Assembly (NCBI GenBank): GCA_964648855.1
Contig: CAZYLT010000003.1
Coordinates: forward strand, 30,001-62,000
Origin: an uncultured archaeon
Lineage (GTDB): Archaea > Asgardarchaeota > Thorarchaeia > Thorarchaeales > Thorarchaeaceae
DNA length: 32,000 nucleotides
Reading direction: 5' to 3'
The first letter of the stretch is position 1; each line of letters opens with the position of its first letter. The position numbers and the translations under genes were made by a program. Under the pieces are notes generated by a model. The model was not told the origin of the DNA, made no database searches, and saw only the letters and a program-made list of their open reading frames with translations. Below, piece after piece: positions 13,432 through 31,952 of the stretch.

Positions 13432-14325
13432 TCAAGATTCTTTCATCATTCTGCTTACAAGAGCTTTCATTATTTGCCGTCGCATCGCCCCCATCTTCAC
13501 CATCTTCCAGCCTAGGATATCAAGATATAGCGTCGTTGGAACCACTTGGATTTCGTCTCTATAGAATAACCATCCAACGATCGCTGTTGCCATCATTGAC
13601 GCTCTGACACGACAGCCAATGGAGATTGCTGGTGACTTGCCTAGTCTTCGACGTTCCTTGGACAACTCCATGTCAATTCCGTGGGGGCGTGAAGCAATGA
13701 AGCTTAAGCCATAATTCAAGATGTAGGTATCCCATTCCTCAGTGCCCCTGTCAGGAATAGGGCCAAAGAAGTCCTCAAAGGACGGGCTTTGAACAGGATC
13801 GAAGACGCCCAAGCCCGCACCAAATCCTATGGCTGGACTTGTAAACACTGGAATTCCTCTAATTCTGGCATTATCGAAGAGCGCTTTTCTCTCATGCATC
13901 ACTTCGATATCTATGCCATCAATTGCGATATCCATGCCCTCCACGAAACCCGAAGCATTTTCCAGTGTGATTCCTTGAGAAAGCACCTCAATCTCTGCAT
14001 CCGGTGCGATTCGTCGAAGCTCGATGGCTACAGCGTGTGCCTTGTTGAAGCCAAGGTTGTCGACATAAGCTCCTAGCTGACGATTCAGATTGCTTGCTTC
14101 GAATATATCTGGGTCGGCAATACGGAAATGGCGGAATCCCATTTGAACCAATGTAAAGAGAATATCGGCGTTCCCTCCGGTTCCTGCAAGTGCAATCTTG
14201 GTGTTTTGGATGATATCCTGTTGTAAGGGTGTGAATATTCCCAAGTTTCTACTGGTGACAATCGAATAATCGTGTGCCTCCGAATCCAGACTTGATAGGT
14301 CCTTCAGTACTGAATCCAAAACCAA
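13432..14325 (-). CDS. ThiF/E1-like adenylyltransferase, PRK08223-like subfamily
   Basis: SRNLG...Q..., AGTGG, ADPDIFEASNLNRQ, K-A, DGID, VFDP..PSFEDFF; lacks the MoeB/ThiF CxxC zinc motifs; TTG start abuts the GH3 stop. Confidence 0.9.
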   Translation of the reverse strand: MVLDSVLKDLSSLDSEAHDYSIVTSRNLGIFTPLQQDIIQNTKIALAGTGGNADILFTLVQMGFRHFRIADPDIFEASNLNRQLGAYVDNLGFNKAHAVAIELRRIAPDAEIEVLSQGITLENASGFVEGMDIAIDGIDIEVMHERKALFDNARIRGIPVFTSPAIGFGAGLGVFDPVQSPSFEDFFGPIPDRGTEEWDTYILNYGLSFIASRPHGIDMELSKERRRLGKSPAISIGCRVRASMMATAIVGWLFYRDEIQVVPTTLYLDILGWKMVKMGAMRRQIMKALVSRMMKES

Positions 14326-15864
14326 CTAAATCACTTCGCATGTGTCTAGAACAGTTGTGTCAGTGGTGAGTGGAATTGGTTTTGCCTGCATGTGCGTGCT
14401 CTTCACTTTGTTTTCATAGGCTGAGCTTGTCATTCGCATCAGTCTTGTAGGGGCAAGCGCTCCGGTCTCTCTATTGAATTTGAACTCCTGATTCGATGCA
14501 CATATTGCGTCCTCAAACTGGTGGATGAATTCCACTGGGGCAAAATCAAGAGTTTTGAACATGGCAGCCAGCGTATAGAATGCAAGGCCGTCCTTGACCT
14601 CTCCAACTACTGAATAGTCCATCACATTTGCGCCTGTCTTATGGCAAGCCTGCTTCAGTGCCTCCGATACATGCGCCTCACTGAGTTTCTCTCCGCTGAG
14701 ATTGACTACTCTTCCCTTTCTGGCTATGTTTCTGATTGTATATGGGTCTGTACTAGTGAAAGTCATCAGGTCTCCTGTGCGATAGCGATACCAGCCTATG
14801 TTGTTAGTCAACACCATCTCGTATCTATTGCCACGCTTCACATCTGAGAGTGGAATCACCTCTGGGATTGGATTATCCAATTCATCTTCATGAATGAACT
14901 CGTAGTAATTTATGTGTGGAGAGAGTTGCACTCCGACTCCTGGCAATAACTGAGCTCCGTAGAACCCTTCACTGCCGCCATAAACTTCCCAGATTGTCGC
15001 GTCAGGAAGAGTCCTCTTCAACCATTCGTGGTAGGGTTCTGTGTCAATCCCTGATGCTAAGAACAATCTAGCATCAGGACATAGTGCTGTAACATCAAGT
15101 TTTCCATCATCACCCAAGGCATGCCTAATCCGCCGCTCGTACTTTGTACCTTTGAACTCATCCAGTAGCATTGGTCCATACATATTTTGTAGACGGCGAA
15201 TCAGGGCGAGGCTGAGTGTAGTGATGCCTTGAAACGCAGTGACATCTCTGGTCGCCACGAGTTTAGCATACTCCCACATTTTGAGTTCCATATTCATTAT
15301 GTTGAATATCTCTTCGCCTGGCTCTATCAGCCTTTGAAACAGAGGGTTCTGGTGGCGAGCATATACTCCTGTGGCATATCCAACCGGAACTCCGTTTATG
15401 TGGCCCATAACTGCAGGGGCCCCAAACGTAACCAGGGTTCCATCAACTATTCTGGGATTATCTTCATCCTGATTCAAGAATCCCATCCAGCCAAGCATCG
15501 TACCTTTGGCAACATCTTTGAGACCCTGTTGAGTTGTTGGTAACTTTTTAGGCGTTCCAGTGGTGCCGCTCGTTTGGAGGTACCATACAACCGGATCCGC
15601 TGTCATAACTCCTTGGGGATTGTCATATGTCATTCGGACATATCGCTCCATCTTAGCAGCATCCACCAAGGGGACTTCTTCTTTGAATCGTTCTGGCGTG
15701 TGTATGTTTGCAAATCCATGCTCTTGCCCGAGTACAGTATCTCGGTGACGGGTAAGAATCCGCATGAGCGTTTCCTCTGATTCCTCAACTGTATAGTCTA
15801 AGACTCGGTCGATATTCTTGGATTTGCGTTTCGCCATAAACGATACCAATTTTCTCATAATCAT
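14326..15864 (-). CDS. GH3-family acyl acid-amido synthetase
   Basis: GH3 motifs TSGTTGTPK, YGGSE and YRYRTGD, plus GEKLSE; start probably ATG 15864 (alternative 15897) rather than 16008. Confidence 0.92.
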   Translation of the reverse strand: MIMRKLVSFMAKRKSKNIDRVLDYTVEESEETLMRILTRHRDTVLGQEHGFANIHTPERFKEEVPLVDAAKMERYVRMTYDNPQGVMTADPVVWYLQTSGTTGTPKKLPTTQQGLKDVAKGTMLGWMGFLNQDEDNPRIVDGTLVTFGAPAVMGHINGVPVGYATGVYARHQNPLFQRLIEPGEEIFNIMNMELKMWEYAKLVATRDVTAFQGITTLSLALIRRLQNMYGPMLLDEFKGTKYERRIRHALGDDGKLDVTALCPDARLFLASGIDTEPYHEWLKRTLPDATIWEVYGGSEGFYGAQLLPGVGVQLSPHINYYEFIHEDELDNPIPEVIPLSDVKRGNRYEMVLTNNIGWYRYRTGDLMTFTSTDPYTIRNIARKGRVVNLSGEKLSEAHVSEALKQACHKTGANVMDYSVVGEVKDGLAFYTLAAMFKTLDFAPVEFIHQFEDAICASNQEFKFNRETGALAPTRLMRMTSSAYENKVKSTHMQAKPIPLTTDTTVLDTCEVI

Positions 15865-16221
15865 GACATCTACTTCCTCGCGCCTTAGGACCTTCATCCT
15901 AAGTTCTCTTTCTTGTTCCAGTAGAAGGAGAAAACAAGCATAATTCTTAGCCCTACAGTCTCTAACCTCTATGCGAGCACAGAATGTCGAAAAACGAATA
16001 CAATTCAATCAAAATACTATTTGGGGCTTTCATAACCTCTTTTTTGACTCATATGAGTTTATTTGCTCTCACATGCTATATCCATCATCGCAAACGGCAC
16101 AACAAAACTCTACTTTTTGCACTTTTCGGGATAAACTGAAAAAGGCAAGCGCCATTAGCAAATCACGCAAAGAGAGGTCATTCGGCTCTCCCCGTTTCAT
16201 GAATTGACAGTAAGGTATAGG

Positions 16222-18412: not shown

Positions 18413-19126
18413 ATGATTGAGCTTGCAAGGATAATGAAGGAAATCGAGAATGAAGAGCGGCGTGAATTGGGTCTCGCCAGACAGCTTGGAATAATGTTTG
18501 GAAGCAGAGACTATTACATTAACTCTGTGAAATGGGACGGCTGTCGTATAATCATAAGAGCCGAATTGATGTCAAGCTTGTTAAGTGCCTTCCCTAGATT
18601 TGCGGAGTCAGATGGCATGTTCACTCCCGCTGATTTGCTGGCTGTGGTACCAGTTACCGCCATTATTGTAGAGGACCGCATTCCCGAATTGGAGATGTGT
18701 GTACTGGAGAAGGCAACCGGCGCATATTTACTCCTTGGGTTTTCAGGTGAATCAACAGACAATCTTGCCTTGGCGATTTGGCGTGTCTTGAAAAGATGGG
18801 AAAACCTTGCAGCAGTACTTTACAAAACGATTGAGCGGAGTTATCCTCTGGAAATCGATTGGAGAGAGTTCCTAAGTGGAGAATCGGGGTTTGTCACAAT
18901 CAAGGCACATAGGAGCCTCACACATACAGAACGCAAAAGAGCTCTAAACAACGTATGCTTAGCATGTGCTTCACTTCTACGTTCCGTATTGGACGATACC
19001 GCATGGTCCGATAGCAGAGTTCGCCGTCTCATATCATTCATGGCTAACTTGCAGGCACAGGAAGACGTTCCAAGCATGGAGGTGCGCACACCTGAATTAG
19101 AGGTGGCGGGAGGTGCCATGAAATGA
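18413..19126 (+). CDS. Hypothetical protein, first gene of the long operon
   Basis: 237 aa; follows an AT-rich 220-bp intergenic region; ATGA overlap with the radA-like gene. Confidence 0.8.
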   Translation: MIELARIMKEIENEERRELGLARQLGIMFGSRDYYINSVKWDGCRIIIRAELMSSLLSAFPRFAESDGMFTPADLLAVVPVTAIIVEDRIPELEMCVLEKATGAYLLLGFSGESTDNLALAIWRVLKRWENLAAVLYKTIERSYPLEIDWREFLSGESGFVTIKAHRSLTHTERKRALNNVCLACASLLRSVLDDTAWSDSRVRRLISFMANLQAQEDVPSMEVRTPELEVAGGAMK

Positions 19127-20163
19127 CTGAGTTGGAAGCGGTAAGCGGTATTGGGCCTGGAACCGCAAAGAAACTCCAGGATGTGTTTGTCACAACAGCT
19201 GAGATTCTAGCCGTGCAGAACCCTCTTGAGCTTCAGGAGAAAACTAAGATTGGTGAGGGGACTTGTCATAGCATCATTCGATCTGCACGGATGTTGATTG
19301 GCAAGTATGGCTTCAAGACAGGTCTCGAAATAGAAGAGCAAATGGCGACCAGTGCAAAGCTTACAACTGGTATCGAAAAACTGGATGAAGCTCTCCTTGG
19401 AGGAATGGAGGAGGGTAGTATCATCGAGCTATATGGGCCCGCCAGAGGTGGCAAGACCCATTGGTGTTTCTATTTCGCCGTCAGAGCTCAATTGCCTGCA
19501 GACAAAGGCGGGTTAGGGGGTCGGGTTCTCTGGCTTGATACAGAGTCCAGCTTTAAACCCTGGGTAATTAGAGGTATTGCTCTGAGATTCGGATTGGACC
19601 CGGAGGCCGCCTTGGGAAATATCTCGCTGGCTGAAATATTCCTGTCAAGTCAGATCCCCGAAGTCTTCGAGAACATACCGCAAATGTGCGCAGAACAAGA
19701 CTACAAACTAGTCGTCATCGATTCGTTTACTGGGCTGTTCAGAGCAGAGTATACTGGCCTAAGTGAGTTGAGGGTAAGGCAACAAGACATGAACAGAATA
19801 CTCAACCAAATGAGGCGGACAGGTGTAGCAACCGGAGCCACATTCGTCTATACAAATCAAGCCATGGCGAATATCAGTGCTTACGGCGGGAACCCAAACG
19901 CTCCAGTTGGAGGGCATATTTTGGCTCATGCATCTGATTACAGATTCTACGTCCGCAAGCTGAAGGATGATGAACGGCAAATTGTGTTGCGAGACAATGC
20001 AGGAGTTCCAGAGTTTCATGAGAAACTCAAGCTGGGATGGGGTGGTTTCTATCAGGATTCGAAATCCAAGAAGCAACACGAGCCGAATATTCTAGAAAAG
20101 ATACGTGCCAGCGGCAAGGCTGGCTTCTTGAAGGCTGAAGAAGAGATTGAGGAGGAGGAGTAA
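19123..20163 (+). CDS. Divergent full-length RadA/Rad51-family recombinase paralogue
   Basis: N-terminal HhH (VSGIGPGTAKKL), GFKTG polymerisation motif, Walker A GPARGGKT, DTESSF, Walker B LVVIDS, FRAEY..RQQ, TNQ and GGHILAH. Confidence 0.92.
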   Translation: MTELEAVSGIGPGTAKKLQDVFVTTAEILAVQNPLELQEKTKIGEGTCHSIIRSARMLIGKYGFKTGLEIEEQMATSAKLTTGIEKLDEALLGGMEEGSIIELYGPARGGKTHWCFYFAVRAQLPADKGGLGGRVLWLDTESSFKPWVIRGIALRFGLDPEAALGNISLAEIFLSSQIPEVFENIPQMCAEQDYKLVVIDSFTGLFRAEYTGLSELRVRQQDMNRILNQMRRTGVATGATFVYTNQAMANISAYGGNPNAPVGGHILAHASDYRFYVRKLKDDERQIVLRDNAGVPEFHEKLKLGWGGFYQDSKSKKQHEPNILEKIRASGKAGFLKAEEEIEEEE

Positions 20164-20588
20164 TGTTTCGCGTCTACCGTTGCTCTTGTTGCAAGTACAT
20201 TGGCTATGCTGAAGTAGAATCGAAAAGCTCTGATAATTCCTGTGCTCTCTGTGGAAACGCGATTCATCCGTCTGAGGAGAGCATCTATGTTGCCGAACGG
20301 AATGAAGCTAGAAGACTAGCCACACAGCAAGCCATGAAATTCTCACGTTACAATCGTCCCACTGTTCAGCGTGGACTGGGAGTTAGAAAGAGGGTTCTGA
20401 ACATTGTTGCAGCATTAATTGAGATGAATCGAGGGCAGCCCGTTGAACGTTCAGATATAATAGCAGAATGCAATAAAGCGGATATTGTAGAGAGTCGCGC
20501 TGAGCATTTTCTCTCTCAATTAGCACAGGAAGACATTGTGCAACTGCTTTCTGGAAATCGAATCGCCCTTAGTGGAGGGATGGTCTAG
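20163..20588 (+). CDS. Zn-ribbon + C-terminal winged-helix protein
   Basis: CSCC...CALC (two CxxC); C-terminal 'RSDIIAECNKADIVESRAEHFLSQLAQEDIV' resembles an MCM-tail-type wHTH; TAATG coupling. Confidence 0.75.
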   Translation: MFRVYRCSCCKYIGYAEVESKSSDNSCALCGNAIHPSEESIYVAERNEARRLATQQAMKFSRYNRPTVQRGLGVRKRVLNIVAALIEMNRGQPVERSDIIAECNKADIVESRAEHFLSQLAQEDIVQLLSGNRIALSGGMV

Positions 20589-21184: not shown

Positions 21185-23146
21185 ATGTCTGAAAGCATCC
21201 CTGATCCAATGAATTGGTTTCCCTACAAACCAAGACCTCATCAAGAGGATGCTGTATTTTTCGCATCGGATATCTACAAAGAACAGACTGTTGGAATATT
21301 ATCCGCTGATTGTGGAGTCGGCAAGACTATCGCAGCTCTGTCTGGATATGTTGCCGCCAGAGAACAAGAGCCTGACAGTCGATTGTTTATACTGACAAGA
21401 ACGCATTCACAGACAACAGTCTTCGAAGATGAGATTGCTATCCTTCGTTCACGCGGGGCCTCTTTTCTCACATCCACCAGTATGATTAGTAGGGCCCATG
21501 TATGTCCCTTGAAGGCTGAGATTGACAACCAAACCTCAGCAGGATTTCTCCGCGGCTGTGCCATGATGATTCGCACAGGTCGATGCCGATATTACTGGTC
21601 ATTCTATCGTCGCCATGGAGATAATTCCCGCCCAGTCATACGAAACCGTGCACGCCAACTTGTCAATGAAGCTCTGCTGCGTGGCGTGGTAAATCGAGAA
21701 GTCGTGGAAGAAATAGGATCCTCTGAATCTATTTGCCCGTATGAGCTACTCCGATGGACATCTCGAAGTAGTAGAGTCATAATAGGGCCGTATTCGTACC
21801 TATTCAGAAGCAGAATTAGAACCGCGATATTGAACAGTCTGGGACTTGACGTATACGATATCGATCTTCTAGTCGATGAGGCCCATAATCTCAGTGAACA
21901 TTCTTTGGATATTGAGTCAAGTTCCTTGACCGGAGAAGACCTTCGGTGGCTGAGAGAGAATAAGCAAGCAATCCAACGGGAGAGCGGTATTTCCTGGTTA
22001 GGCGAATGTGTGGACTTTCTTTGGAACACTCTTATTGAGAAGATTGCTCTATTCGGTGATGGTCGAAGAGAGATTACGCTGGATACATGGGATGCTGTTC
22101 CACGCTTCATTGAAGCAGGTCACGTATCCGCGCTTATGGAACAAACACAGGTCATTGAGAATGATGAAAACATTCCCTCTGAAACACCTTTTGACCGGCT
22201 GATTGATTTTCTTTACACTGGAAGGCGGGCCATAGATGGCAAGGATTGGCATATCATAGTAAGGATACGACACTCATGGAAGCTGGAGCATCTTGGTATA
22301 GATGATATGGAGATTCTAATTCAACCCCTAAATGCAGCGGGACTAATCGCGCCCGTGTTACGTGGAGTGCGCGCGGCTCTTCTCATGAGTGGAACACTGA
22401 GACCCACAGAGTTGTATGCATCTCTTATGGGCATTCGTGGTGCAAAGACCCAAGAGTTGGCGAGCCCTTACCCCAGAGGCTCACGACTAATTCTCATAGA
22501 GAACTCCTTGTCGACGAAATACTCCGAACGGAGCCCGAATTTATACAGAAAGCTGGCAGAACGGGTCAATACTGCATTATCAGCAATGCCGGCAGACAAG
22601 TCGGCATTAGTGGCATTTCCTTCTTATCGGATGATGGAGGAGGTTTTGAGCTATAATATAGAATGTGCTTTCCGACGTAGAATTGTTGAAACCAGATCGG
22701 CTCTGTTAGAGGATTTAAAAGAGCAAATGGAAACACAACCCTGTGCTGTCTTTCTTGTTTACGGTGGAAAGTTCAGTGAGGGCATTGACCTTGTGAAGAA
22801 TGGAGATTCATTGGTCAACTTGATCATCGGAGTTGGTATTCCCTTCACCCCGCCAACATCATATCAACAAGCCTTGCAGGGTTGGTATGAAGAAAAATTT
22901 GGTGAAGGAACAGGGTTCTATTATTCATCTGTTATACCGTCAATTCGTAAAGTGGTGCAATTAGTCGGAAGACTACGGAGGTCTCCAAATGATTGGGGCG
23001 CAGTGGTACTCCTCGATAGAAGGTTTCAGAGATACATCAACATGTTCGGAGCTGATGTTGCAGCCGACATCTGGCCATATGCAACATCCAATGAAATTGG
23101 TGATGCGATTTCAGTATTCATTGAGAATAGGAGGGATGGGTGTTGA
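21185..23146 (+). CDS. XPD/Rad3/DinG-family Fe-S 5'-3' DNA helicase
   Basis: Q motif (PYKPRPHQ), ADCGVGKT, RTHSQ, four Fe-S cysteines (HVCPL, RGCAM, GRCRYY, ICPYE), DEAHN, SGTL, SEGID, QLVGRLRR and DRRF. Confidence 0.93.
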   Translation: MSESIPDPMNWFPYKPRPHQEDAVFFASDIYKEQTVGILSADCGVGKTIAALSGYVAAREQEPDSRLFILTRTHSQTTVFEDEIAILRSRGASFLTSTSMISRAHVCPLKAEIDNQTSAGFLRGCAMMIRTGRCRYYWSFYRRHGDNSRPVIRNRARQLVNEALLRGVVNREVVEEIGSSESICPYELLRWTSRSSRVIIGPYSYLFRSRIRTAILNSLGLDVYDIDLLVDEAHNLSEHSLDIESSSLTGEDLRWLRENKQAIQRESGISWLGECVDFLWNTLIEKIALFGDGRREITLDTWDAVPRFIEAGHVSALMEQTQVIENDENIPSETPFDRLIDFLYTGRRAIDGKDWHIIVRIRHSWKLEHLGIDDMEILIQPLNAAGLIAPVLRGVRAALLMSGTLRPTELYASLMGIRGAKTQELASPYPRGSRLILIENSLSTKYSERSPNLYRKLAERVNTALSAMPADKSALVAFPSYRMMEEVLSYNIECAFRRRIVETRSALLEDLKEQMETQPCAVFLVYGGKFSEGIDLVKNGDSLVNLIIGVGIPFTPPTSYQQALQGWYEEKFGEGTGFYYSSVIPSIRKVVQLVGRLRRSPNDWGAVVLLDRRFQRYINMFGADVAADIWPYATSNEIGDAISVFIENRRDGC

Positions 23147-23331
23147 GAGCAATGACAGGATATGCTGGAATTGGTTGTGTGGCAGTTGTTTTCCCCCTGC
23201 TACTAAGAGCCAGTATTACAGCTGTCTTGTTCACTTTGCTACTGATATCGATCATTTTCCATGTGGAAAAAGTGGCTCGTCGATTCGAACCATGGCATAT
23301 TGGAGATTTCATTCGGAGGAATTTGATTTGA
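23143..23331 (+). CDS. Small hydrophobic (1-2 TM) membrane protein
   Basis: About 62 aa; GGAGG RBS; TTGA overlaps at both ends (alternative GTG start 23140). Confidence 0.7.
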   Translation: MRAMTGYAGIGCVAVVFPLLLRASITAVLFTLLLISIIFHVEKVARRFEPWHIGDFIRRNLI

Positions 23332-23924
23332 GCGTTATGGAATCCATAGAGGTTAAGTGGATGATTCCAGCTGCTTTAGGAGTCGCCTGGAGCTTCAAGC
23401 TTGGCTTATCTTCTACTATCTCTGAACAGCTTATCGGATTGAGCGGCATAGGCTCCTTACTGATATTGATGGTGCTCTACCAGACTACAAGAAGAAACTT
23501 CTCGTTACACTGGGATGAAAAAACCGGTGTACTTGCAATTGTTCGAACTTGGTCTGTGGAGATGTACACCACAAGATTGATTGCAAGTGTACCTCAGGGC
23601 ATAGACCTTCAGCACTCGGCCTCCCGTGTGTTAGCATCTATGCATGCCAGATACGAAGAAGATGGAAAGGGAATCCTAGAATTCCATGTATGCAGGCCTC
23701 TTCGAAACGGTCCTTCTCTGGTAGGATTCACAGTTTGCCGCAAACAAATTCGCACTCAGCCTCTGAAGCGGCAAATGGAGTCTCTTTGTCAACAAGTGCA
23801 GGAGGACGGCATGATTTTGGAATCTGCGATGCATGCATCATACCCGCACACTCCAATTGAGAGAGCGAAACTGGAACACAACCTGATGATACGTAGTGGA
23901 GGGACAGATGTCTTTGCGAGGTAA
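23328..23924 (+). CDS. Membrane protein, 2 N-terminal TM + soluble alpha/beta domain
   Basis: Start re-assigned from 22989 to TTG 23328 (GGAGGA at 23315-23320, TTGA overlap); 198 aa. Confidence 0.75.
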   Translation: MSVMESIEVKWMIPAALGVAWSFKLGLSSTISEQLIGLSGIGSLLILMVLYQTTRRNFSLHWDEKTGVLAIVRTWSVEMYTTRLIASVPQGIDLQHSASRVLASMHARYEEDGKGILEFHVCRPLRNGPSLVGFTVCRKQIRTQPLKRQMESLCQQVQEDGMILESAMHASYPHTPIERAKLEHNLMIRSGGTDVFAR

Positions 23925-24180
23925 TAATAATGCTAGGTTTGTTCGTCTACCGAAAAACCTGACTATGCAGGATGCTATGCAGGCACTTAGAGTTGGACTT
24001 GGTTATGACTGGATCCGACTCACGTCGGAAACTGTGGCTTTGGGGATTCCTCCTAATCACTCACTTCCGGACTTGATTGCTGTAAAGACCGAATTTGTCA
24101 CATCAGCAACTGAAGATGATGTGAAGCGACTTGAAACTGCATTGAGAGCAATTGTTGTGCAAAATGGGGTGATGGCTTGA
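23908..24180 (+). CDS. Small hypothetical protein
   Basis: ATG 23908 with GGAGG RBS; 90 aa; fills the operon gap with overlaps on both sides. Confidence 0.7.
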   Translation: MSLRGNNNARFVRLPKNLTMQDAMQALRVGLGYDWIRLTSETVALGIPPNHSLPDLIAVKTEFVTSATEDDVKRLETALRAIVVQNGVMA

Positions 24181-26489
24181 CAAGTGGAATCCTTGGATCT
24201 AAGCCTGGTGAGGATCCTCTAGAGGTTATGTCAAAAGAGAAGTTCTCAATCACCCAGAGTGACGCAATTCGGTGGTCAAACCGAAAAATACGGCGAGGGT
24301 GGAATCTCCCTATCTTGTTGGTTCTAGGCGCATTTGTTGGGGCATTTCAATTTCCATTCCATCTCATTGGCATTACTATAATGGTTTCAATAGTTCTAGT
24401 ATTGGTTCCACGAATATTGGATGGCGTAGGTGGTAGATGGAGTGAGGTTTCTAAACCAGACATCATATACGAAGAGAAATCTAAAACCGTGAGATGCAAG
24501 GGGCTTGGAAATGCACACATTGTCGGGTTAGACCTGAGATGGATTCCAGCACGTGTGCCAAATTCCTTGGCTCAACTAATTCGAGCTCTACCAATGGAGC
24601 ACGGTTTCTGCCTATCGGTCGCAATGTCTATTGAAGACCCAGATAAGGTATTGCAACACGACACTCTTGATGATATACTTGAGAAAGCTCTGCGATTCAA
24701 AGACCCCGATAATGTTGAAGACTACTTCCGCTTCAGATATGGTCTTTGGAAAACTCGAGTTACCCATATTGGACTCGTGCCAAATGCAAGTGAAAGCGGA
24801 CAACATGTTGCAGCTGTCAAGGGTGCGCTACCTTCGAAGGAATGGCATTTAATCAAGCCAAAGTCTCTTGAAACTGACTTGGTAGCTAAGAACACGATCA
24901 AACAGAACGGACAGTTCTACATGGTCGGCGAGGAACTGACCGGATGGCTCGTTCAGCTCAGGAGTGAGCTGTCCCAAGAAGTTGGTATTAGCATCCCCGG
25001 GCAATTCCTCATTGATATACGTCCAAAAGAGTTCGATTATGAACTAGGTAGAGTCCTCAATCCTGATACGCTCCGCCAAGGACCAGCAATTGGGTTGACG
25101 CACAACGAAATATCTGAAGGTCTGCTTGTCTGTGGTGGATCGTATAATCAAAGGAGCGATATCCTAGGTACTCTGATTCGAGGGCTAATTAGAAATGAAA
25201 AACGAGTGGTACTCATAACAAATAGGTCGGAATATCTGGAATTGACTGGCTTGTCAGATGCAGCTGTGGGAATGAGGCTAGGAAAAGATTTGGTACTGAA
25301 TCCCGTCGACTCCGATGGTGTTCCTCGAACAGAGTATGTTCCCCAACTACTGTCAGCCCTTGAAGTGTTCACAGAAAGCAACCTGGGGACTGCGGCTTCT
25401 TTGGAAACCGCATTGAATCGAGCCGTGGCACTTGGTGATGCAACTATTGCTGATGTCAAAGAGGGTGCGGATGAGATTCTGACCACAGAAATAGAGTCCT
25501 CGGAATCAAGGAATATTGAAACGGATAAACAATCAAAGAAAGGGTTTGACGCGATTACTCGCTTGTACGAAGGGACTGGCGCACGGGCCTTCTACGGAAC
25601 ACAGTCAGTGCGATTCAAAGACCTAACACAACAGCCCCTGAGTGTGATTGTAGTATCCACTGGAACGAGCTCAATGGACATGTTTGCTGAAGATATACTA
25701 TCCATGAAGCTCACAGGTCTAGAGGACGACAAAGACTTGGTCGTTGTTCTAGATGAGATTGAAGGGCTCAGAGTCACCACAAGGCGATATTCAAGCCGTG
25801 AACCATGGGTGGACCGAATCACAAAGCGAATAGCTGACAAATTCTCATTGGTTGTATCATCAGAACACCCATCCTATCTAGGCTCTAGTGTGAAGAATCT
25901 CCTATCATCCTGTATATCCTTACGAATGAGAAGTGAAGATGATATTGCATCTGTTAACGCTATTCTCGGATTCAATGTAATTAGTCATGGGCTTCATTCA
26001 AAAGCTCGTTGGTCCCCCAGAGAAACAACCTACCTGCGAACTATGGAAGACGGGCATGCGCTTCTTGTGAGAGATACGGTAGAAACTTGCCAGCCAATCC
26101 TACTATTAGAAGCCGATTCTTTGGAAGCGCCGTCATCTTATGAAATGAATAGACGATTGCAGTCAATTTTGAAACCAACACAAGATGACGGGGGCGCTGA
26201 AAAGTCTGTAATTGCACGAATCGCCAGTGGCAAGGATAGCGGTTTCGTAAAGAAAGTACTACGTCTGCTGGAAAGATATGAACCTCTAACTGAAGAATCT
26301 ATGAAGAAATTCATCCAATCGTCTGGTGATAGTGGCGATGTTGAAGGAGTAGTACTGAGGCTTCGCGAGGCAGGCCTTATTCTCGAAGGACACGAAAGTC
26401 ATGCTGGGGTGTCGTACAAGAACTATCGGCTTACCATGAAGGGTACTATGACTCTCCGGCAGCTGGAGAAGGGAGGGTTGAAAGGATGA
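24177..26489 (+). CDS. Membrane-anchored HerA/FtsK/VirB4-superfamily protein with degenerate ATPase motifs and C-terminal wHTH
   Basis: N-terminal TM hairpin; 'YELGRV...IGL...GLLVCGGSYNQRS...RVVLITNRSEY...LVLNPV...VVVLDE...SLVVSSEHPS' follows the HerA/DUF87 motif order; C-terminal 'VEGVVLRLREAGLILE...YRLTMKG' wHTH. Confidence 0.75.
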   Translation: MTSGILGSKPGEDPLEVMSKEKFSITQSDAIRWSNRKIRRGWNLPILLVLGAFVGAFQFPFHLIGITIMVSIVLVLVPRILDGVGGRWSEVSKPDIIYEEKSKTVRCKGLGNAHIVGLDLRWIPARVPNSLAQLIRALPMEHGFCLSVAMSIEDPDKVLQHDTLDDILEKALRFKDPDNVEDYFRFRYGLWKTRVTHIGLVPNASESGQHVAAVKGALPSKEWHLIKPKSLETDLVAKNTIKQNGQFYMVGEELTGWLVQLRSELSQEVGISIPGQFLIDIRPKEFDYELGRVLNPDTLRQGPAIGLTHNEISEGLLVCGGSYNQRSDILGTLIRGLIRNEKRVVLITNRSEYLELTGLSDAAVGMRLGKDLVLNPVDSDGVPRTEYVPQLLSALEVFTESNLGTAASLETALNRAVALGDATIADVKEGADEILTTEIESSESRNIETDKQSKKGFDAITRLYEGTGARAFYGTQSVRFKDLTQQPLSVIVVSTGTSSMDMFAEDILSMKLTGLEDDKDLVVVLDEIEGLRVTTRRYSSREPWVDRITKRIADKFSLVVSSEHPSYLGSSVKNLLSSCISLRMRSEDDIASVNAILGFNVISHGLHSKARWSPRETTYLRTMEDGHALLVRDTVETCQPILLLEADSLEAPSSYEMNRRLQSILKPTQDDGGAEKSVIARIASGKDSGFVKKVLRLLERYEPLTEESMKKFIQSSGDSGDVEGVVLRLREAGLILEGHESHAGVSYKNYRLTMKGTMTLRQLEKGGLKG

Positions 26490-28684
26490 GCCAATCCGGA
26501 ATGGGCAAGCGCATTGTAACTTGGCTTGAATCATCTGGCATCTCCCCGCGAGGAGTACAGCTTGAAGCAATGGAGGCGGGATTGCTTGAGGGTAACAGTG
26601 TCTTGGTATGTAGTCCAACCGGGTCGGGGAAGACATTGATCGGCGAGATGGCTATGCTTCGTGCGGTAAACTCGGGATTCAGAGGCATCTATCTTGTTCC
26701 CCTGAGAGCACTCGCTTTTCAAATCGCAGCGAACATGAAGAAGCGTTACGAGCAATATAATATCCGAATTGGCATTTCAACGGGCGACTTCGAATCTAAT
26801 GGTTCTGAGATTTTGGATTATGATATACTTGTTACAACCTACGAGAGAGCAGACTCGCTTCTGCGGCATAATTCAGTTTGGATGAATGAGATTGGCACTA
26901 TGTGTGTAGACGAAGTACAAAACATATCGGACCGATTAAGGGGGGCGCGCTTGGAGAGTGTAATGGTTCGAATGATACGGCTGATACCGGACTTGCAGAT
27001 TGTTGCGCTTTCGGCAACAATTGAATCTCCTGAACAGTTGGCAGACTGGCTTGGCGCTGAACTTGTGTTGAATACTGAACGCCCGGTTCCGCTACATACT
27101 GCAGTCAGTATTAATCCTAGTAGAGATGAAGGCATCAAGAAATTTGCTATGACTACTGTTCAAAGAGATGGTCAATGTCTCATCTTCAATCGGACAAGAA
27201 ATTCGGCTGAGAGTACTGCATTGAAGCTAGCCGAACACGTTGCAAAGCAGCTTCGAGTGGAAGAGAATATCAAAATTCAACAGATGTTAGATTCTCTTGA
27301 GTATGTCAACGTCCAGATTCCACGCGAGCTGCGTCATTGTCTCTCCAATGGTGTAGGATATCACCATGCGGGTCTCAGAAGCTCTGCTCGTCATCTTGTT
27401 GAAGAAATGTTCCGAGAGGGCTTAATTCGGATAATTTCGTCGACCACCACTCTTGCATCTGGCATGGATCTTCCAGCTCGCACTGTGATAATATCAGACA
27501 TTCGTAGTCCTCATGATTACAGAGAGTTGTTGCCAACAAATAGAGTACACCAGATGCTTGGCAGAGCTGGAAGGCCTGGCATGGACAGACGAGGTTTTGG
27601 AGTCATCATTGTAGATTGCAAAGGACAACAGCGAGAAGTCGTATCCAGATACTTCGAGAGCATCAAGGATGAAGCAACAGGCACAGTGATGCTGACACCG
27701 AAGTATGATCCAGTGATTAGTCACTTCGGAAACTCAAGCTCTCTAGAAGAGCAATTGCTAATCGTTCTTGATAAGGAACGAAAGGCGGCTCTCGAGGAAA
27801 TTGAAGATGGCATTCTGGCTGAATCGTTCTATACTCATCAAGGAATAAGAAATGTGAAGGCGCCAATGCGTTTGCTGTGCATTAATGAGGTGACAGCTGA
27901 AAGCGCAATTGAACGTCATGCGTTACTGGAAACAGTCCGTGCTGCACGTAACGGAGTACTAGGAACCGCAACAATAAGAGAAACAACCAATGAGGTTCTT
28001 GGCGGAATGATTAGCGGTACGTTGGAGGGAACGGCAAGTTGCAGGTTTTCTGTACGCTCGACAGTTAACGGCTTACTAGAGGGTCCGATGTGTTCATGCG
28101 GCCAATCACTAGAAGATGGAATATTATGTGAGCATCTTGTGATTCTGGGACTGAAAGCATCAAAAAGACACGAGAGTCTGGCAAATTATGTAATTCCACT
28201 TTCGCTGGGAGAAACCAGTCCACTTAGACGTTTGGTGAGAATGGGGTTGGTAGAGGGTGGAACTGACGGAATGCTAAGGATAACTAGGTTGGGCTCCTTA
28301 GTATCTCGATTGTACCTTCGGATCGGCACTGCCGCTGAGCTTCTGGCGTGGCTACCCACCATTAAAGACACTCAAGATGTCTTATCGTTGATACGTCACC
28401 TCGCCGCACTAGAGAGCGGTCGTGAATTTGACGAATCCTATGATGCTATCATAGCGCGACTTGCAGCAACGCGAGAATCGATGGAGGCCATATCACGTGA
28501 AACTGGCGTATCAGTTGGAGACCTTTACCTCCTTGCCGACCGAGCGAGGTGGCTGGCTTACGCAGTTATGGTGATTTCAGAACATGGGAAGTTGATGGAC
28601 ATTAGAAAAGCTGCAATGAATCTCTGGGAGGAGATTGATTCACGATTTTCAACCCTGGAGGATAATAGAAATGGTGACTACTGA
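26486..28684 (+). CDS. Ski2/Hel308-like SF2 3'-5' helicase with inserted SWIM zinc finger
   Basis: SPTGSGKT, VPLRALA, TYE, DEVQ, SAT, HHAGL, TTTLASG and QMLGRAGRPG; SWIM CSC-x9-CEH. Confidence 0.9.
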   Translation: MSQSGMGKRIVTWLESSGISPRGVQLEAMEAGLLEGNSVLVCSPTGSGKTLIGEMAMLRAVNSGFRGIYLVPLRALAFQIAANMKKRYEQYNIRIGISTGDFESNGSEILDYDILVTTYERADSLLRHNSVWMNEIGTMCVDEVQNISDRLRGARLESVMVRMIRLIPDLQIVALSATIESPEQLADWLGAELVLNTERPVPLHTAVSINPSRDEGIKKFAMTTVQRDGQCLIFNRTRNSAESTALKLAEHVAKQLRVEENIKIQQMLDSLEYVNVQIPRELRHCLSNGVGYHHAGLRSSARHLVEEMFREGLIRIISSTTTLASGMDLPARTVIISDIRSPHDYRELLPTNRVHQMLGRAGRPGMDRRGFGVIIVDCKGQQREVVSRYFESIKDEATGTVMLTPKYDPVISHFGNSSSLEEQLLIVLDKERKAALEEIEDGILAESFYTHQGIRNVKAPMRLLCINEVTAESAIERHALLETVRAARNGVLGTATIRETTNEVLGGMISGTLEGTASCRFSVRSTVNGLLEGPMCSCGQSLEDGILCEHLVILGLKASKRHESLANYVIPLSLGETSPLRRLVRMGLVEGGTDGMLRITRLGSLVSRLYLRIGTAAELLAWLPTIKDTQDVLSLIRHLAALESGREFDESYDAIIARLAATRESMEAISRETGVSVGDLYLLADRARWLAYAVMVISEHGKLMDIRKAAMNLWEEIDSRFSTLEDNRNGDY

Positions 28685-30335
28685 CACTAAAGAAGAATTA
28701 CCGATATCTGAAGAAAATCCTACTGAAGAAGACTTGGTGGGTAAGAGCACTACGTCTGAGAGTAGAGTAGAACTAGAAGAGAAATATGACATCGTGGATG
28801 TTCTTCAGCAAGCGAATCATATCACGAAGACCTACCCCAATGGAATCACATTGGGTATACGATTCAATCCAATATCTGGGGCAAGAACTGTTCATGCTGA
28901 TATGGTCTATGTCTTGGACTGGCGCAGAGCGACATTCCCGCGGAATTCAACCGCCATGAAAGCTGCAATTCTGGAGGTTATCGACCGAGATACAGTAGAT
29001 GTATTTAGAGACTTTGGTTTGGAACACAGACTGGATGTTCTGGAACGAAGGACCACGAAGGGCTCCGTATCATTACGTGTTTTGAAACAGGAGCGGGGCG
29101 AAAGGAAGTCTTTCTTCCACGAAACTCGCAGCGTCTACGTGGTCACCAAAGATACTGCTCCGCCCGTTGATTTCTCCTGGCTTACGGACCCTGGCCGTGT
29201 TGTCGGTGCTGACAATTTTCTGTTGGCTAGAAAAAGTGACATCCGTTCAGTGACCCCCGAAATCGAGAAACGGATTGAATCCCAGAAATGGGGTGTTCTT
29301 CAATCTGGAATTGAATTCAGTTGGGCAGGATTGCTTCTTGCAGTATTTTCCATGATTTCTGCTGGAACTGCTTTCTATGCTTACTTGAAACAAATCGCCA
29401 GCATCTGGTTTCCTCTTGCTGCGGCCATTGCGGGCGTATCTGCATGTCTTGGCAGTGTCATACTGGCCCGAAGAAGAATATCAGAATTCAATGAGCTACT
29501 GAGTATAGAAAGAGAGGATATCGAGCGAGTGGGCGATGACCATAGAATTCAGAAAACGAAGCTGAGCAACCAGAATCTGCTTGATACTCTTCGTACTATG
29601 CGATTTGTAATATCACCTCTTATGGGACGAGTAGTAGGGTCTCTTAATGTTAGGGACTTAAAGGGAGCGTATTTGGCTGGGGAAACTGTACTCGATGAGT
29701 TAGTCAGATTATCTCCCTATGAAGAGATGGAGAAAAAATCCGACTCTGGGTTGAACAAATTTCTAACTTTATTTCAATACTTGGACCCTGAGTATGATGA
29801 GGCTGCTCTCTCAATGGCTTATGTGGCATTCTCCGACCCTAGTTCAGGCATTATTGAGTCAGGACGGATTATTGATTATGCTAGTATCTTATTGGAAGGG
29901 CTCTATCGCAGTGGCATCATTCCGCCTGAATCCAAAGCACAAATGGATGAAAAATTGAGTGAACGAGGTCTGAAGGAATTCAAGGGCAAACTGGATGCAA
30001 CTTTCGCTGAGCTGGGCGAACCCGATATTGAAACGGCAGAAGCAGTCCATACAGAAACCGACGAGGATGATATTGACGCCCTTGAATCGCATGTGCTTGG
30101 GCTGATGGAGGAAGATGAACCCCTACCCAAACCAGTGTCACCTGATGGTGAAGTGTACTATGAAGAAGGTAGTAGCATTCCAGTCATTTTTGCTAGGACT
30201 GCTGATAGAGGACCCTTACAACGAGCAGAAGATAATCTGTCCACAAATGGGAATGTGTCTCCAACTGATGAAACGTCAGCTCACGTGGTAGAGCGGATGA
30301 TAAAGGGCAACAGCGGCAGCAAGAGAGGCGAATGA
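28671..30335 (+). CDS. Membrane protein with central TM hairpin and acidic termini
   Basis: ATG 28671 with GGAGGA RBS (alternative TTG 28635); TMs WAGLLLAVFSMISAGTAFYAYL and IWFPLAAAIAGVSACLGSVILA. Confidence 0.8.
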   Translation: MVTTDTKEELPISEENPTEEDLVGKSTTSESRVELEEKYDIVDVLQQANHITKTYPNGITLGIRFNPISGARTVHADMVYVLDWRRATFPRNSTAMKAAILEVIDRDTVDVFRDFGLEHRLDVLERRTTKGSVSLRVLKQERGERKSFFHETRSVYVVTKDTAPPVDFSWLTDPGRVVGADNFLLARKSDIRSVTPEIEKRIESQKWGVLQSGIEFSWAGLLLAVFSMISAGTAFYAYLKQIASIWFPLAAAIAGVSACLGSVILARRRISEFNELLSIEREDIERVGDDHRIQKTKLSNQNLLDTLRTMRFVISPLMGRVVGSLNVRDLKGAYLAGETVLDELVRLSPYEEMEKKSDSGLNKFLTLFQYLDPEYDEAALSMAYVAFSDPSSGIIESGRIIDYASILLEGLYRSGIIPPESKAQMDEKLSERGLKEFKGKLDATFAELGEPDIETAEAVHTETDEDDIDALESHVLGLMEEDEPLPKPVSPDGEVYYEEGSSIPVIFARTADRGPLQRAEDNLSTNGNVSPTDETSAHVVERMIKGNSGSKRGE

Positions 30336-30336
30336 T

Positions 30337-31014
30337 TTGCTCGACAATCCACTGAACAAATTGACTCAAGAGAAAACGATTACCCATATCGGAGGAGCCA
30401 GCGGATCAGGTAAGACCATTCTCGCCGCCGAGCTAGCAGCTCAGAAAAGCAGAACAAATTCAGTTGATTGGCTATGTGCTGATGGCAAAAGAGCCTTCAT
30501 TGGATATCTGAAACGTGCTGTGAAATCCTCTGGCGGAGTTCAGAGCAATCTCATTCTAACTGTCGCTGATAATCATCAGGATGTCTTACAGTCAATTCTA
30601 TCCACTCCCGATCGCCTAAGATCCAACACTGAATTCATCGTTGTTGATCCGATAACTAGGGTCTTGGATATGTCTCGTAAAGATGAGATTATGTGGGGCA
30701 GAACTCTCTTCGAAGAAGCACTACCCACCCTTGTAGGTTTGAGCATTCAGAGGGACCTATCGCTTTTGATAACTAGCGAAGTGAGATTTAGGGGCGACAA
30801 GACAACACCTGTATTCTGGGATACTCTCAGAACTTGGCTTGATGCTGACTTCTTAATCAAGAGACTACCCGATTCGAATATATCTGAAATCTATGACGTA
30901 ACTGACCCGAATACTGAGAATTTCTTAACGAGTTTTACAGTGAATGAAGACGGGCTTCACTTTATTGAAGACGAATCCAAAAGGGGGACAAAGGAAAATT
31001 GCTCGGAGGAATAG
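30337..31014 (+). CDS. RadB-like RecA-fold ATPase (core only)
   Basis: ITHIGGASGSGKT Walker A, IVVDPIT Walker B, LLITSEVR; no N-terminal HhH domain. Confidence 0.8.
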   Translation: MLDNPLNKLTQEKTITHIGGASGSGKTILAAELAAQKSRTNSVDWLCADGKRAFIGYLKRAVKSSGGVQSNLILTVADNHQDVLQSILSTPDRLRSNTEFIVVDPITRVLDMSRKDEIMWGRTLFEEALPTLVGLSIQRDLSLLITSEVRFRGDKTTPVFWDTLRTWLDADFLIKRLPDSNISEIYDVTDPNTENFLTSFTVNEDGLHFIEDESKRGTKENCSEE

Positions 31015-31952
31015 TATACCGCATAGTCAAATGGGCTATCATAGCTGCGGTTGCATTACTAATCGGCTCGCAGCTGATGTCCTCCGTGTATTCTATTGTG
31101 CTAGCGTTCAGATTGGGCAACTCAGTTCCCTTCATAGGAGTCTTACTTGTTGCTACAACTCTAGCCTGGCTATCAGGGAGAAATTACGATTGGAATCTGG
31201 CAGACCTTCTCATCAATGTCATTGCAGGTGTAGCTCTCACTCTTTCGATGCTCTCAGTCTTCTTTATACTTCTATCATATGGAGTTCTCATATCGATTAT
31301 CGGTAGCAGTGTTTATGTTGGACTTCTGACAATCATTCGTACACCGGAACTGGCTAAGCGAATGCATGAGAGCCAGATAGCAGGATCTCTTCAATATATG
31401 GATTGGATTTCTGGGACACAGAGCAAGGGTTTCTTGGTTCACAAGATGCTAGAAAGTCTGGACGTGTCGGTCTCCTTGCTGCCGACTGGGAGCATCAGCA
31501 GAATCCTGCCACTATTGAAAGATAGACCACGGCTTCCCATTGTCATTACCCATTTCTTGGATGCCGATGCTCTCTTTGTCAGAAACCCACACTCAGAAAA
31601 GATGAACAAAATCCTTGAGTTACTGAAAACCGTGGACGTGCTGCCGCTGAACACACCATCTAACTTTTTTTCGCGATTTATCCTGAGCCTTCCCATGTTG
31701 GACAATAGTGAATCCCATCATGATTACGTAGTTGTTCAAGATGCCTCTGCCGTCGAGAGGTTGCTATCAGAGGAGTTAGCAGAATTAACCCTCTACGCCT
31801 CTCCTATTGGGCCCGTAATGGTGGTCGCGAAAAGCGATGCCTTAGGGATGGATGCAGTTGACATCCCAAAACGCTATTTGCCAACTATCCTCGTCAAACG
31901 AGATATTGAGGGATTGTTATCTTCAATTGAGGTGGAGCCGGCTGCCAAGTAA
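30999..31952 (+). CDS. Membrane protein, about 4 N-terminal TM + soluble domain
   Basis: First about 110 aa strongly hydrophobic; overlaps the upstream gene by 16 nt. Confidence 0.8.
   Translation: MLGGIVYRIVKWAIIAAVALLIGSQLMSSVYSIVLAFRLGNSVPFIGVLLVATTLAWLSGRNYDWNLADLLINVIAGVALTLSMLSVFFILLSYGVLISIIGSSVYVGLLTIIRTPELAKRMHESQIAGSLQYMDWISGTQSKGFLVHKMLESLDVSVSLLPTGSISRILPLLKDRPRLPIVITHFLDADALFVRNPHSEKMNKILELLKTVDVLPLNTPSNFFSRFILSLPMLDNSESHHDYVVVQDASAVERLLSEELAELTLYASPIGPVMVVAKSDALGMDAVDIPKRYLPTILVKRDIEGLLSSIEVEPAAK

Follow-up and report, generated by a model that had tools for sequence, protein, structure and literature searches.

A conserved membrane-anchored VirB4-like protein with degenerate catalytic motifs, encoded amid recombination genes in Asgard archaea

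The window analysed here is a 32,000-nucleotide stretch of DNA from an uncultured archaeon of the Thorarchaeaceae (Asgardarchaeota; assembly GCA_964648855.1, contig CAZYLT010000003.1, positions 30,001 to 62,000 of the forward strand). Its subject is a gene of 770 codons that encodes a membrane-anchored protein with the fold of the FtsK-HerA-VirB4 ATPases. The catalytic residues of that fold are missing throughout the family to which the protein belongs, and the gene is nevertheless a maintained one, with the dead core among the most constrained parts of its product. Our tentative reading, to which we give a little under even chances, is that the protein descends from the VirB4/CedB/CedD branch of FtsK-HerA ATPases, has lost catalysis and acts as a non-catalytic membrane hub that handles DNA either at the membrane or across it. 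The usual motors that drive DNA through a ring or across a membrane are ATPases of the FtsK-HerA-VirB4 type; in this family the sole core domain is consistently dead, yet it is constrained like a working helicase. The dead core, the constraint on it, a range confined to the Asgard archaea and a neighbourhood that includes Hel308 and RadA genes point to an uncharacterised membrane-associated recombination system that has neither a Pfam family nor an annotation.

Loss of the catalytic positions

A first-pass annotation of the DNA had described an intact reading frame in which the order of the HerA/DUF87 motifs is kept while the catalytic positions are altered, and every string that it quoted was located in the protein (GGSYNQRS at residues 320-327, TNRSEY at 348-353, VVLDE at 523-527, IADK at 552-555 and SEHP at 562-565). 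We took the register of these strings from hhalign of the family against the eight DUF87/HerA paralogues of the same genome, and the residue counts at each position from hmmalign of 62 Thor-type and 94 distant unique sequences. The family aligned with the paralogues over 333 columns at a probability of 94.5% (E 7.5e-8), which argues that the assignment of strings to motifs is no chance resemblance. R326 falls on the Walker A lysine and Q325 on the glycine that precedes it; T348 to Y353 fall on D-P-H-x-D-Y, D526 and E527 on the acidic pair of Walker B, A553 on the arginine of GRKFG and E563-H564-P565 on Q-R-P. The altered Walker A, DxHGEY, arginine-finger and TQxP strings thus lie on the HerA motif columns, as had been proposed.

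The loss of Walker A is uniform. Of the P-loop glycines, G320 is kept in 62/62 Thor-type sequences and G321 in 56/62, while position 325, the Walker A glycine before the lysine, reads S, E, D or Q, and positions 323-325 are acidic or polar in most members. The lysine column itself is arginine in 60 of the 62 Thor-type sequences and in 74 of the 81 distant sequences that are ungapped there, and the Ser/Thr column at 327 is variable (R, L, H, M, K and others). GK[ST] is absent from the P-loop of every family member among the 62 Thor-type and 94 distant sequences; stray matches to that pattern lie elsewhere in the protein or in canonical DUF87 outliers. An intact Walker A was accordingly found in none of the orthologues or distant relatives. 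Walker B, said to be the only motif to survive, does read VVLDE in this protein, but its survival is not family-wide, since only D526 is conserved (D in 53 and E in 7 of the 62 Thor-type sequences). The column of the catalytic glutamate, 527, holds E in 18, D in 16, G in 14, N in 7 and S in 4 of the same sequences, so E527 is under no constraint; the closest relative, P0002, with 86% identity, has glutamine there. The arginine column of the HerA GRKxG motif, occupied by A553, reads K24/S10/A7/R7. From these lost residues we infer that the protein does not hydrolyse ATP, and its binding of Mg-ATP has probably been lost too.

Other positions are conserved in a manner specific to the family: NPDTLxxGP (295-303), GKDLVLNPVD (369-378), FYGTQ (472-476), the acidic residue at 529 and the motif HSKARxSxRE (607-616) of a basic loop. 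A further highly conserved segment, residues 247-285, corresponds to the N-terminus of the ATPase-like gene in those Asgard families that split the gene, and is a candidate partner-binding region. This segment and the basic loop (605-616) are among the most conserved parts of the protein yet have the lowest confidence in the structural model, a combination that would fit regions which become folded only when bound to a partner or to DNA.

Fold of the core and of the N-terminal domain

The AlphaFold2 (AF2) model of the whole protein (predicted local distance difference test, pLDDT, 72; predicted template-modelling score, pTM, 0.60) lays out transmembrane (TM) helices, an alpha/beta N-domain at residues 97-240, a low-confidence linker at 243-282, a RecA-like core at 288-650 and a C-terminal helix-helix-helix-beta-beta-helix unit at 688-764. 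In a Foldseek search of the PDB with this model, TrwK/VirB4 (7o42_A) came first (2e-11), followed by HerA (8xau and 4d2i, about 1e-10), and these two groups led 153 matches at E<=1e-3. Alignment of the core with VIA-align placed the VirB4 C-domain 4ag5_A at Z 28.2 (root-mean-square deviation 2.7 A over 322 residues), DndH-C 7es4 at Z 25.3, Sulfolobus HerA (SsoHerA, 4d2i_A) at Z 25.2, TrwB at Z 20.3 and FtsK at Z 14.9; full-length TrwK is alignable by VIA to model residues from about 90 to 660. These results bear out the assignment to the FtsK/HerA/VirB4 group.

The N-domain carries the protein towards VirB4 within that group. When it was modelled alone (pLDDT 83), the first 11 rows listed by Foldseek were all TrwK/VirB4 chains (E 1.3e-3 to 1.5e-2, TM-scores 0.5-0.62), with the next match at E 0.06. 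A VIA wide scan of 48,161 chains, independent of Foldseek, gave 7o42_A as its sole match at Z>=8 (Z 8.4), with 152/163 residues aligned to residues 215-387 of that chain. Because both the N-domain and the core match VirB4, the body of the protein is VirB4-like in both domains and not just HerA-like in its core. The HerA/VirB4-family label of the first-pass annotation therefore stands as to the group and can be refined: the match of the N-domain to that of VirB4, and a layout of TM segment, N-terminal domain (NTD) and ATPase-like domain, place the protein nearer to VirB4, CedB and CedD than to HerA.

Sequence profiles reach the same superfamily at a greater distance. A profile from an alignment of 32 family members matched four HerA entries in the PDB along a single stretch that runs between Walker B and the TQRP region (E values 0.009-2), and the most distant matches of the family profile among 1.84 billion representatives were DUF87/HerA_C proteins with intact GSGKT-type P-loops (E 1e-4 to 1e-6). 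No Pfam family matches the protein even at E<=10, the CagE_TrbE_VirB, AAA_10 and DUF87 signatures included. The only NCBIfam match was HerA_antiphage at E 0.16, PADLOC and PHROGs gave none, and a single-sequence search of the PDB returned noise and one weak HerA match. ESM features put the protein near the archaeal DUF87 and CedB clusters, which serves as a lead only.

The membrane anchor and the C-terminal winged helix

The frame is open from a TTG start through all 770 codons with no internal stops, as the first-pass annotation had it. The TTG overlaps the stop of an upstream open reading frame (ORF) of 94 codons (TTGA), has a Shine-Dalgarno-like site, GGGGTGAT, on its 5' side, and is supported as the start by the conservation of the N-terminal LGxKPxxDP in homologues; at the other end, the stop overlaps the ATG of the Hel308-type gene (ATGA). 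The proposed TM hairpin was corroborated by Kyte-Doolittle segments within residues 43-86, by AF2 helices at 43-58 and 60-83 and by a TM-like segment in 38/40 full-length orthologues. A basic flank precedes it, which fits an N-in topology.

The winged helix-turn-helix (wHTH) that had been noted at the C-terminus is PadR-like by profile, by Pfam and by the secondary structure of the model. A profile of the last 100 residues matched PadR structures in the PDB (3l7w_A at 1e-5, 7wjp_A at 8e-4 and 3hhh_A at 2e-3) and dozens more PadR/MarR entries, many of them below 0.1. Pfam found PadR in 12/30 members and HTH_34 in 9/30, and distant relatives match too. With an entropy of 1.04 bits it is the most conserved domain of the protein.

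Distribution and selection

A word-indexed search of 5.8 billion proteins returned 47 relatives, all annotated as 'hypothetical', mostly of 760-787 aa and with 38-90% identity; those with named sources all come from metagenome-assembled genomes of Thorarchaeota/Promethearchaeota. When 1.84 billion representatives were searched exhaustively with the family profile, only 136 proteins appeared at E<=1e-3; of the roughly 155 relatives in total, every one with a named source belongs to Asgard archaea. The alignment of 32 sequences has a mean column identity of 58% and 70 invariant columns. A species-level scan of genomes yielded 45 loci, and a scan of the phylum found the gene in 53/85 genomes of the archaeon's own family, with weaker relatives showing up in nine further Asgard families.

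Selection was estimated by the Nei-Gojobori method in six orthologue pairs with unsaturated synonymous divergence (dS 0.29-0.89). Omega was 0.08-0.14 for the pseudo-ATPase and 0.06-0.11 for the adjacent Hel308 paralogue in the same pairs, so the orthologues are under purifying selection, a point that the first-pass annotation had proposed to check. By region, omega was 0.088 in the ATPase-like core, the second lowest among five segments, 0.075 in the segment 256-295, 0.16 in the N-domain and 0.13 in the tail with the wHTH. These values, together with the uniform loss of motifs down to about 20% identity, effectively rule out a pseudogene or a lineage-specific decay.

An operon with a second recombination toolkit

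In the Thorarchaeota loci that were examined, the gene belongs to an operon of about 15 genes whose synteny is conserved. When the proteins of the window were searched by tblastn against the 45 orthologous loci, every sufficiently long locus had the same gene order: a 237-aa protein, RadA, a 141-aa protein, a 197-aa protein, XPD, a '311-aa' ORF, the 94-aa ORF, the pseudo-ATPase, Hel308, a 566-aa protein, a RadB-like protein and a 317-aa protein. The junctions are tight and overlapping. Beyond the window the operon goes on with a Rad51-family protein of 272 aa and an XPG/FEN1-like nuclease of 329 aa, after which the coding strand switches. This fixed synteny and the absence of PADLOC or PHROG matches effectively rule out a defence island or a conjugative element.

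RadA, XPD and Hel308 have copies elsewhere in the genome, from which we conclude that the operon contains a second, divergent recombination toolkit. Its RadA scores 194 bits against Pyrococcus furiosus RadA; the RadA on contig C5 (L096, 1031-2056) scores 390, and further XPD-like and Hel308-like copies lie on contigs C2 and C4. The Hel308 paralogue of the operon has DEVQ instead of DEVH/DEIH at motif II and shows a weak Pfam match to archaeal helicase domain 4 (E 5.7e-4). TM segments are predicted in the 198-aa protein described below and in the 566-aa and 317-aa proteins; the genes of the last two have omega of 0.15-0.27, and no paralogy was found between either of them and the pseudo-ATPase.

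An active HerA/VirB4 paralogue, raised in the first-pass annotation as a possible source of power and perhaps to be found downstream, did not materialise: the downstream genes encode Hel308, the 566-aa TM protein, the RadB-like protein, the 317-aa TM protein and the Rad51-like and XPG-like proteins. A search of the genome for such a partner found eight DUF87 genes, seven with intact GK[ST], all on other contigs; the genome, which is 94.6% complete, yielded no gene of the AAA_10 or CagE/VirB4 type. No NurA, Mre11 or Rad50 gene was among the operon genes scanned.

Split, fused and free-standing N-modules

In nine loci of other Asgard families (L084-L091 and L095) the gene is split into one for a TM protein of 235-362 aa, which covers profile positions from about 13 to 250, and a following gene for a protein of 489-572 aa, which covers positions from about 250 to 777 including the wHTH. 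A Hel308-like, RadA-like or RadB-like gene lies within a few kb in 8/12 distant loci, and the Hel308 genes of distant loci are closer to the operon Hel308 than to the second copy. In another Asgard family (L092 and L093) there are fused forms of 1,235-1,310 aa with a second N-module.

The '311-aa' ORF just upstream is in reality a gene for about 198 aa, since the median length among its homologues is 200 aa. By hhalign the 198-aa family matches the split N-module genes (probability 94.5%, E 7.7e-8), as does the N-terminal part of the pseudo-ATPase (97.3%, E 1.9e-11). A direct hhalign between the 198-aa family and that N-terminal part was not significant (2.3%), so that the link runs only through the split N-module genes. 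As both match those genes, Thorarchaeota have two modules of TM segment and N-domain, one free and one fused.

A proposed role and the alternatives to it

We propose that the protein would be the membrane-anchored structural hub of a machine encoded by the operon, probably in the form of a ring. On one side it would dock its free-standing N-domain paralogue, the 198-aa protein, along with other membrane proteins; on the other it would dock DNA and soluble enzymes through the wHTH, the segment 247-285 and the basic loop 605-616. The motor would be the translationally coupled Hel308-type helicase, XPD or both, in keeping with the flanking helicases named in the first-pass annotation, and DNA handled at the membrane or across it, on the analogy of Ced-type import, would then be handed to the toolkit of RadA, Rad51 paralogues and flap nuclease. 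That the machine imports DNA is possible, if on the unlikely side. The fuller version of the proposal, in which the Asgard archaea have a domesticated, Ced-like type IV secretion system (T4SS) whose VirB4 has become a passive membrane ring through which Hel308 and XPD paralogues pull, and which takes up DNA from other cells and recombines it with its own RadA/Rad51-paralogue/flap-nuclease set, is fairly unlikely when taken as a whole.

Several observations weigh against a hub that serves transport. Neither a VirB6/CedA-like channel nor a VirB2/CedA1-like pilin was recognised in the operon, and no relatives of the 566-aa and 317-aa proteins were detected in Pfam, PDB profiles or the ESM Atlas. 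A two-helix hydrophobic ORF of 63 aa (23140-23331), between XPD and the 198-aa gene, was considered as a conserved pilin candidate and ruled out, for it is present only in the nearest subclade (L001, L002, L043 and L038); in most Thorarchaeota XPD directly adjoins the 198-aa homologue. Five genomes of the same family without a match, one of them of the same genus, were searched again with the operon Hel308. In two of the five the operon is cut by the end of a contig, and in the other three (G386, of the same genus, G324 and G346; 90-93% complete) only canonical XPD and Hel308 were found and no operon copy. The operon is widespread and vertically stable but perhaps not universal; it was not found in several fairly complete genomes of the family, in which it may be either dispensable or unassembled, and so is probably not essential. 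The conserved Gly-Gly...Arg of the P-loop could retain a ligand, and domains of the PadR type usually belong to transcription factors.

The absence of a recognisable channel or pilin homologue, and a motor that is dead, suit a membrane platform for repair: nothing would be transported, and the dead ring would keep chromosomal DNA that is broken or replicating, together with the spare recombination enzymes, at the membrane. The data on fold, selection and operon fit it equally well; we nonetheless judge it unlikely, because the nearest characterised relatives, VirB4, CedB/CedD and TrwB, all serve transfer across a membrane (PMC11868833), and four or five membrane proteins per operon seem excessive for a simple tether. 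It is distinctly unlikely that the protein is a non-hydrolysing nucleotide switch, in which the Gly-Gly-x4-Arg loop would bind ATP, ADP or another phosphate ligand and gate assembly or the recruitment of the helicase in a way comparable to EssC/EccC. G320, G321 and R326 stand out from their surroundings by stronger conservation, D526 and an acidic residue at position 529 have been retained and the low omega of the core agrees with such a role, but the second glycine of the P-loop and the Mg-binding Ser/Thr are gone, positions 323-325 are mostly acidic or polar, the P-loop helix begins three residues early in the model and the arginine-finger position is unconstrained.

A membrane-tethered regulator of transcription, with the PadR-type wHTH on an operator and the dead body and TM hairpin acting as the sensor that controls the recombination operon, would account for the family and the strong conservation of the C-terminal domain. 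We consider it quite improbable: a VirB4-like body of 650 aa with a paralogous N-module partner would be an unusual sensor, the gene sits in mid-operon in translational coupling with Hel308, and FtsK provides a precedent for a wHTH on a membrane-anchored ring that serves the handling of DNA. Mobile elements typically carry VirB4-like genes and defence systems commonly include HerA, so a HerA/VirB4 gene in lineage-specific decay, or one that a conjugative element or a defence island carries as cargo, also had to be considered; it is hardly credible in the face of full-length frames in more than 50 genomes, an omega of about 0.1, identical motif loss to about 20% identity, a fixed gene order in 45 loci and the lack of PADLOC and PHROG matches.

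Comparison with known systems

CedD and CedB from the Sulfolobales Ced system and TedB of Thermoproteales, which were compared by description only, resemble the protein in being archaeal and chromosomally encoded and in combining a TM segment with a VirB4-like N-domain and a core of the HerA/VirB4 type. CedD joins a TM segment to a VirB4-like NTD and a HerA/VirB4 ATPase domain; DNA damage induces it, and DNA import depends on it; the N-domains of CedB and CedD correspond to two different parts of the VirB4 NTD, and a TM segment of their own is present in CedD and in roughly half the CedB, CedD and VirB4 proteins of Ced systems (PMC11868833). Both Ced and Ted derive from T4SS by domestication (PMC9905601), and the link of Ced to repair by homologous recombination (PMC11868833, PMC9905601) is shared with the setting of our gene. 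In contrast to CedD and CedB, the protein described here has dead catalytic motifs and an added wHTH of the PadR type, no CedA/VirB6-like or CedA1/VirB2-like partner was recognised for it, and it is encoded amid RadA, XPD and Hel308 paralogues in Asgard archaea.

For the C-terminal and the N-terminal domain alike, VirB4/TrwK gives the closest structural match; of the VirB4 NTD, the match covers the second half only. The protein differs from VirB4/TrwK in lacking Walker A, the catalytic glutamate, the arginine finger and the Pfam signatures of VirB4, no other T4SS components were recognised, and it has a TM hairpin of its own where VirB4 uses VirB3. With HerA it shares the fold of the core, and its profile is homologous to DUF87 proteins; unlike HerA, it has lost the catalytic residues, has an alpha/beta, VirB4-like N-domain with no HerA N-domain (the HAS beta-barrel) among its matches, and has no NurA, Mre11 or Rad50 neighbours among the operon genes scanned. 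FtsK/SpoIIIE is similar in its N-terminal membrane anchor, its RecA-like core of the same superfamily and its C-terminal winged helix, which in FtsK is the gamma domain and reads DNA. The core of our protein is more distant from FtsK (Z about 15) and its motor is inactive, and the likeness in layout is convergent, given that its wHTH is of the PadR type. EssC/EccC of type VII secretion offer a precedent for degenerate FtsK-type ATPase domains that a membrane machine retains in a regulatory or structural capacity; those domains share a single chain with an active one, whereas here the sole core domain is dead.

If DNA import is true, chromosomal DNA exchange of the Ced/Ted type would extend to the closest archaeal relatives of eukaryotes, with a new division of labour between a passive ring and motors of helicase superfamily 2 (SF2). 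That Hel308 is paired with Rad51 paralogues is reminiscent of the partnership between HELQ and RAD51 paralogues in eukaryotes. Candidate functional parts of the proposed hub are R326, the segment 247-285, the basic loop 605-616, the wHTH and the 198-aa N-module paralogue.

Features of the gene and its surroundings

The coordinates of the features are collected in Table 1.

Table 1. Features of the pseudo-ATPase gene and of neighbouring operon genes (positions in the window unless a locus is named)
Feature	Position	Strand	Remarks
Whole gene	24177..26489	+	770-aa membrane-anchored VirB4/CedB-like pseudo-ATPase with C-terminal wHTH
Cytoplasmic N-terminal tail, residues 1-42	24177..24302	+	LGxKPxxDP and IRWxxR motifs; W33 and R36 invariant
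TM hairpin, residues 43-83	24303..24425	+	Sequence variable, hydrophobicity kept
Alpha/beta N-domain, residues 97-240	24465..24896	+	Resembles second half of VirB4 N-domain
Highly conserved segment, residues 247-285	24915..25031	+	Entropy 1.08 bits, pLDDT <50
RecA-like ATPase-fold core, catalytically degenerate, residues 288-650	25038..26126	+	By VIA, and by hhalign against the HerA paralogues of the genome
Degenerate P-loop LLVCGGSYNQRSDIL	25122..25166	+	G320 and G321 kept; R326 in place of Walker A Lys; lacks Gly-Lys-Ser/Thr
Walker B remnant LVVVLDEIEGLR	25737..25772	+	D526 conserved, E527 unconstrained, acidic residue 529 conserved
SEHP at the TQRP position of HerA/FtsK	25860..25871	+	Family reads [E/D]-H-P
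Conserved basic loop GLHSKARWSPRE, residues 605-616	25989..26024	+	R611 invariant family-wide; disordered in model
PadR-like wHTH, residues 688-764	26238..26468	+	Helix-helix-helix-strand-strand-helix in model
Divergent RadA paralogue	19123..20163	+	Canonical RadA on contig C5
XPD-type helicase paralogue	21185..23146	+	Walker A and DEAH intact
198-aa TM protein	23328..23924	+	One or two TM segments; inside over-long 311-aa ORF (22989-23924), which overlaps XPD
Hel308-type SF2 helicase paralogue	26486..28684	+	Motif I GSGKT and motif II DEVQ present
566-aa protein	28635-30335		Central TM hairpin; conserved across Thorarchaeota
317-aa protein	30999-31952		Four or five N-terminal TM helices and soluble domain; conserved across Thorarchaeota
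Rad51-family gene	853-1671 of locus L099		Just past window end, same contig
XPG/FEN1-like gene	1674-2663 of locus L099		Just past window end, same contig

The 141-aa protein encoded between RadA and the 197-aa gene (20163-20588) begins with a CxxC...CxxC motif that resembles a zinc ribbon, and it has a weak PADLOC match to LmuB (E 0.004) that is probably due to the zinc ribbon alone. Upstream of the operon, on the minus strand (13432-16008), lie genes for an adenylating enzyme of the GH3 family and a protein of the ThiF family.

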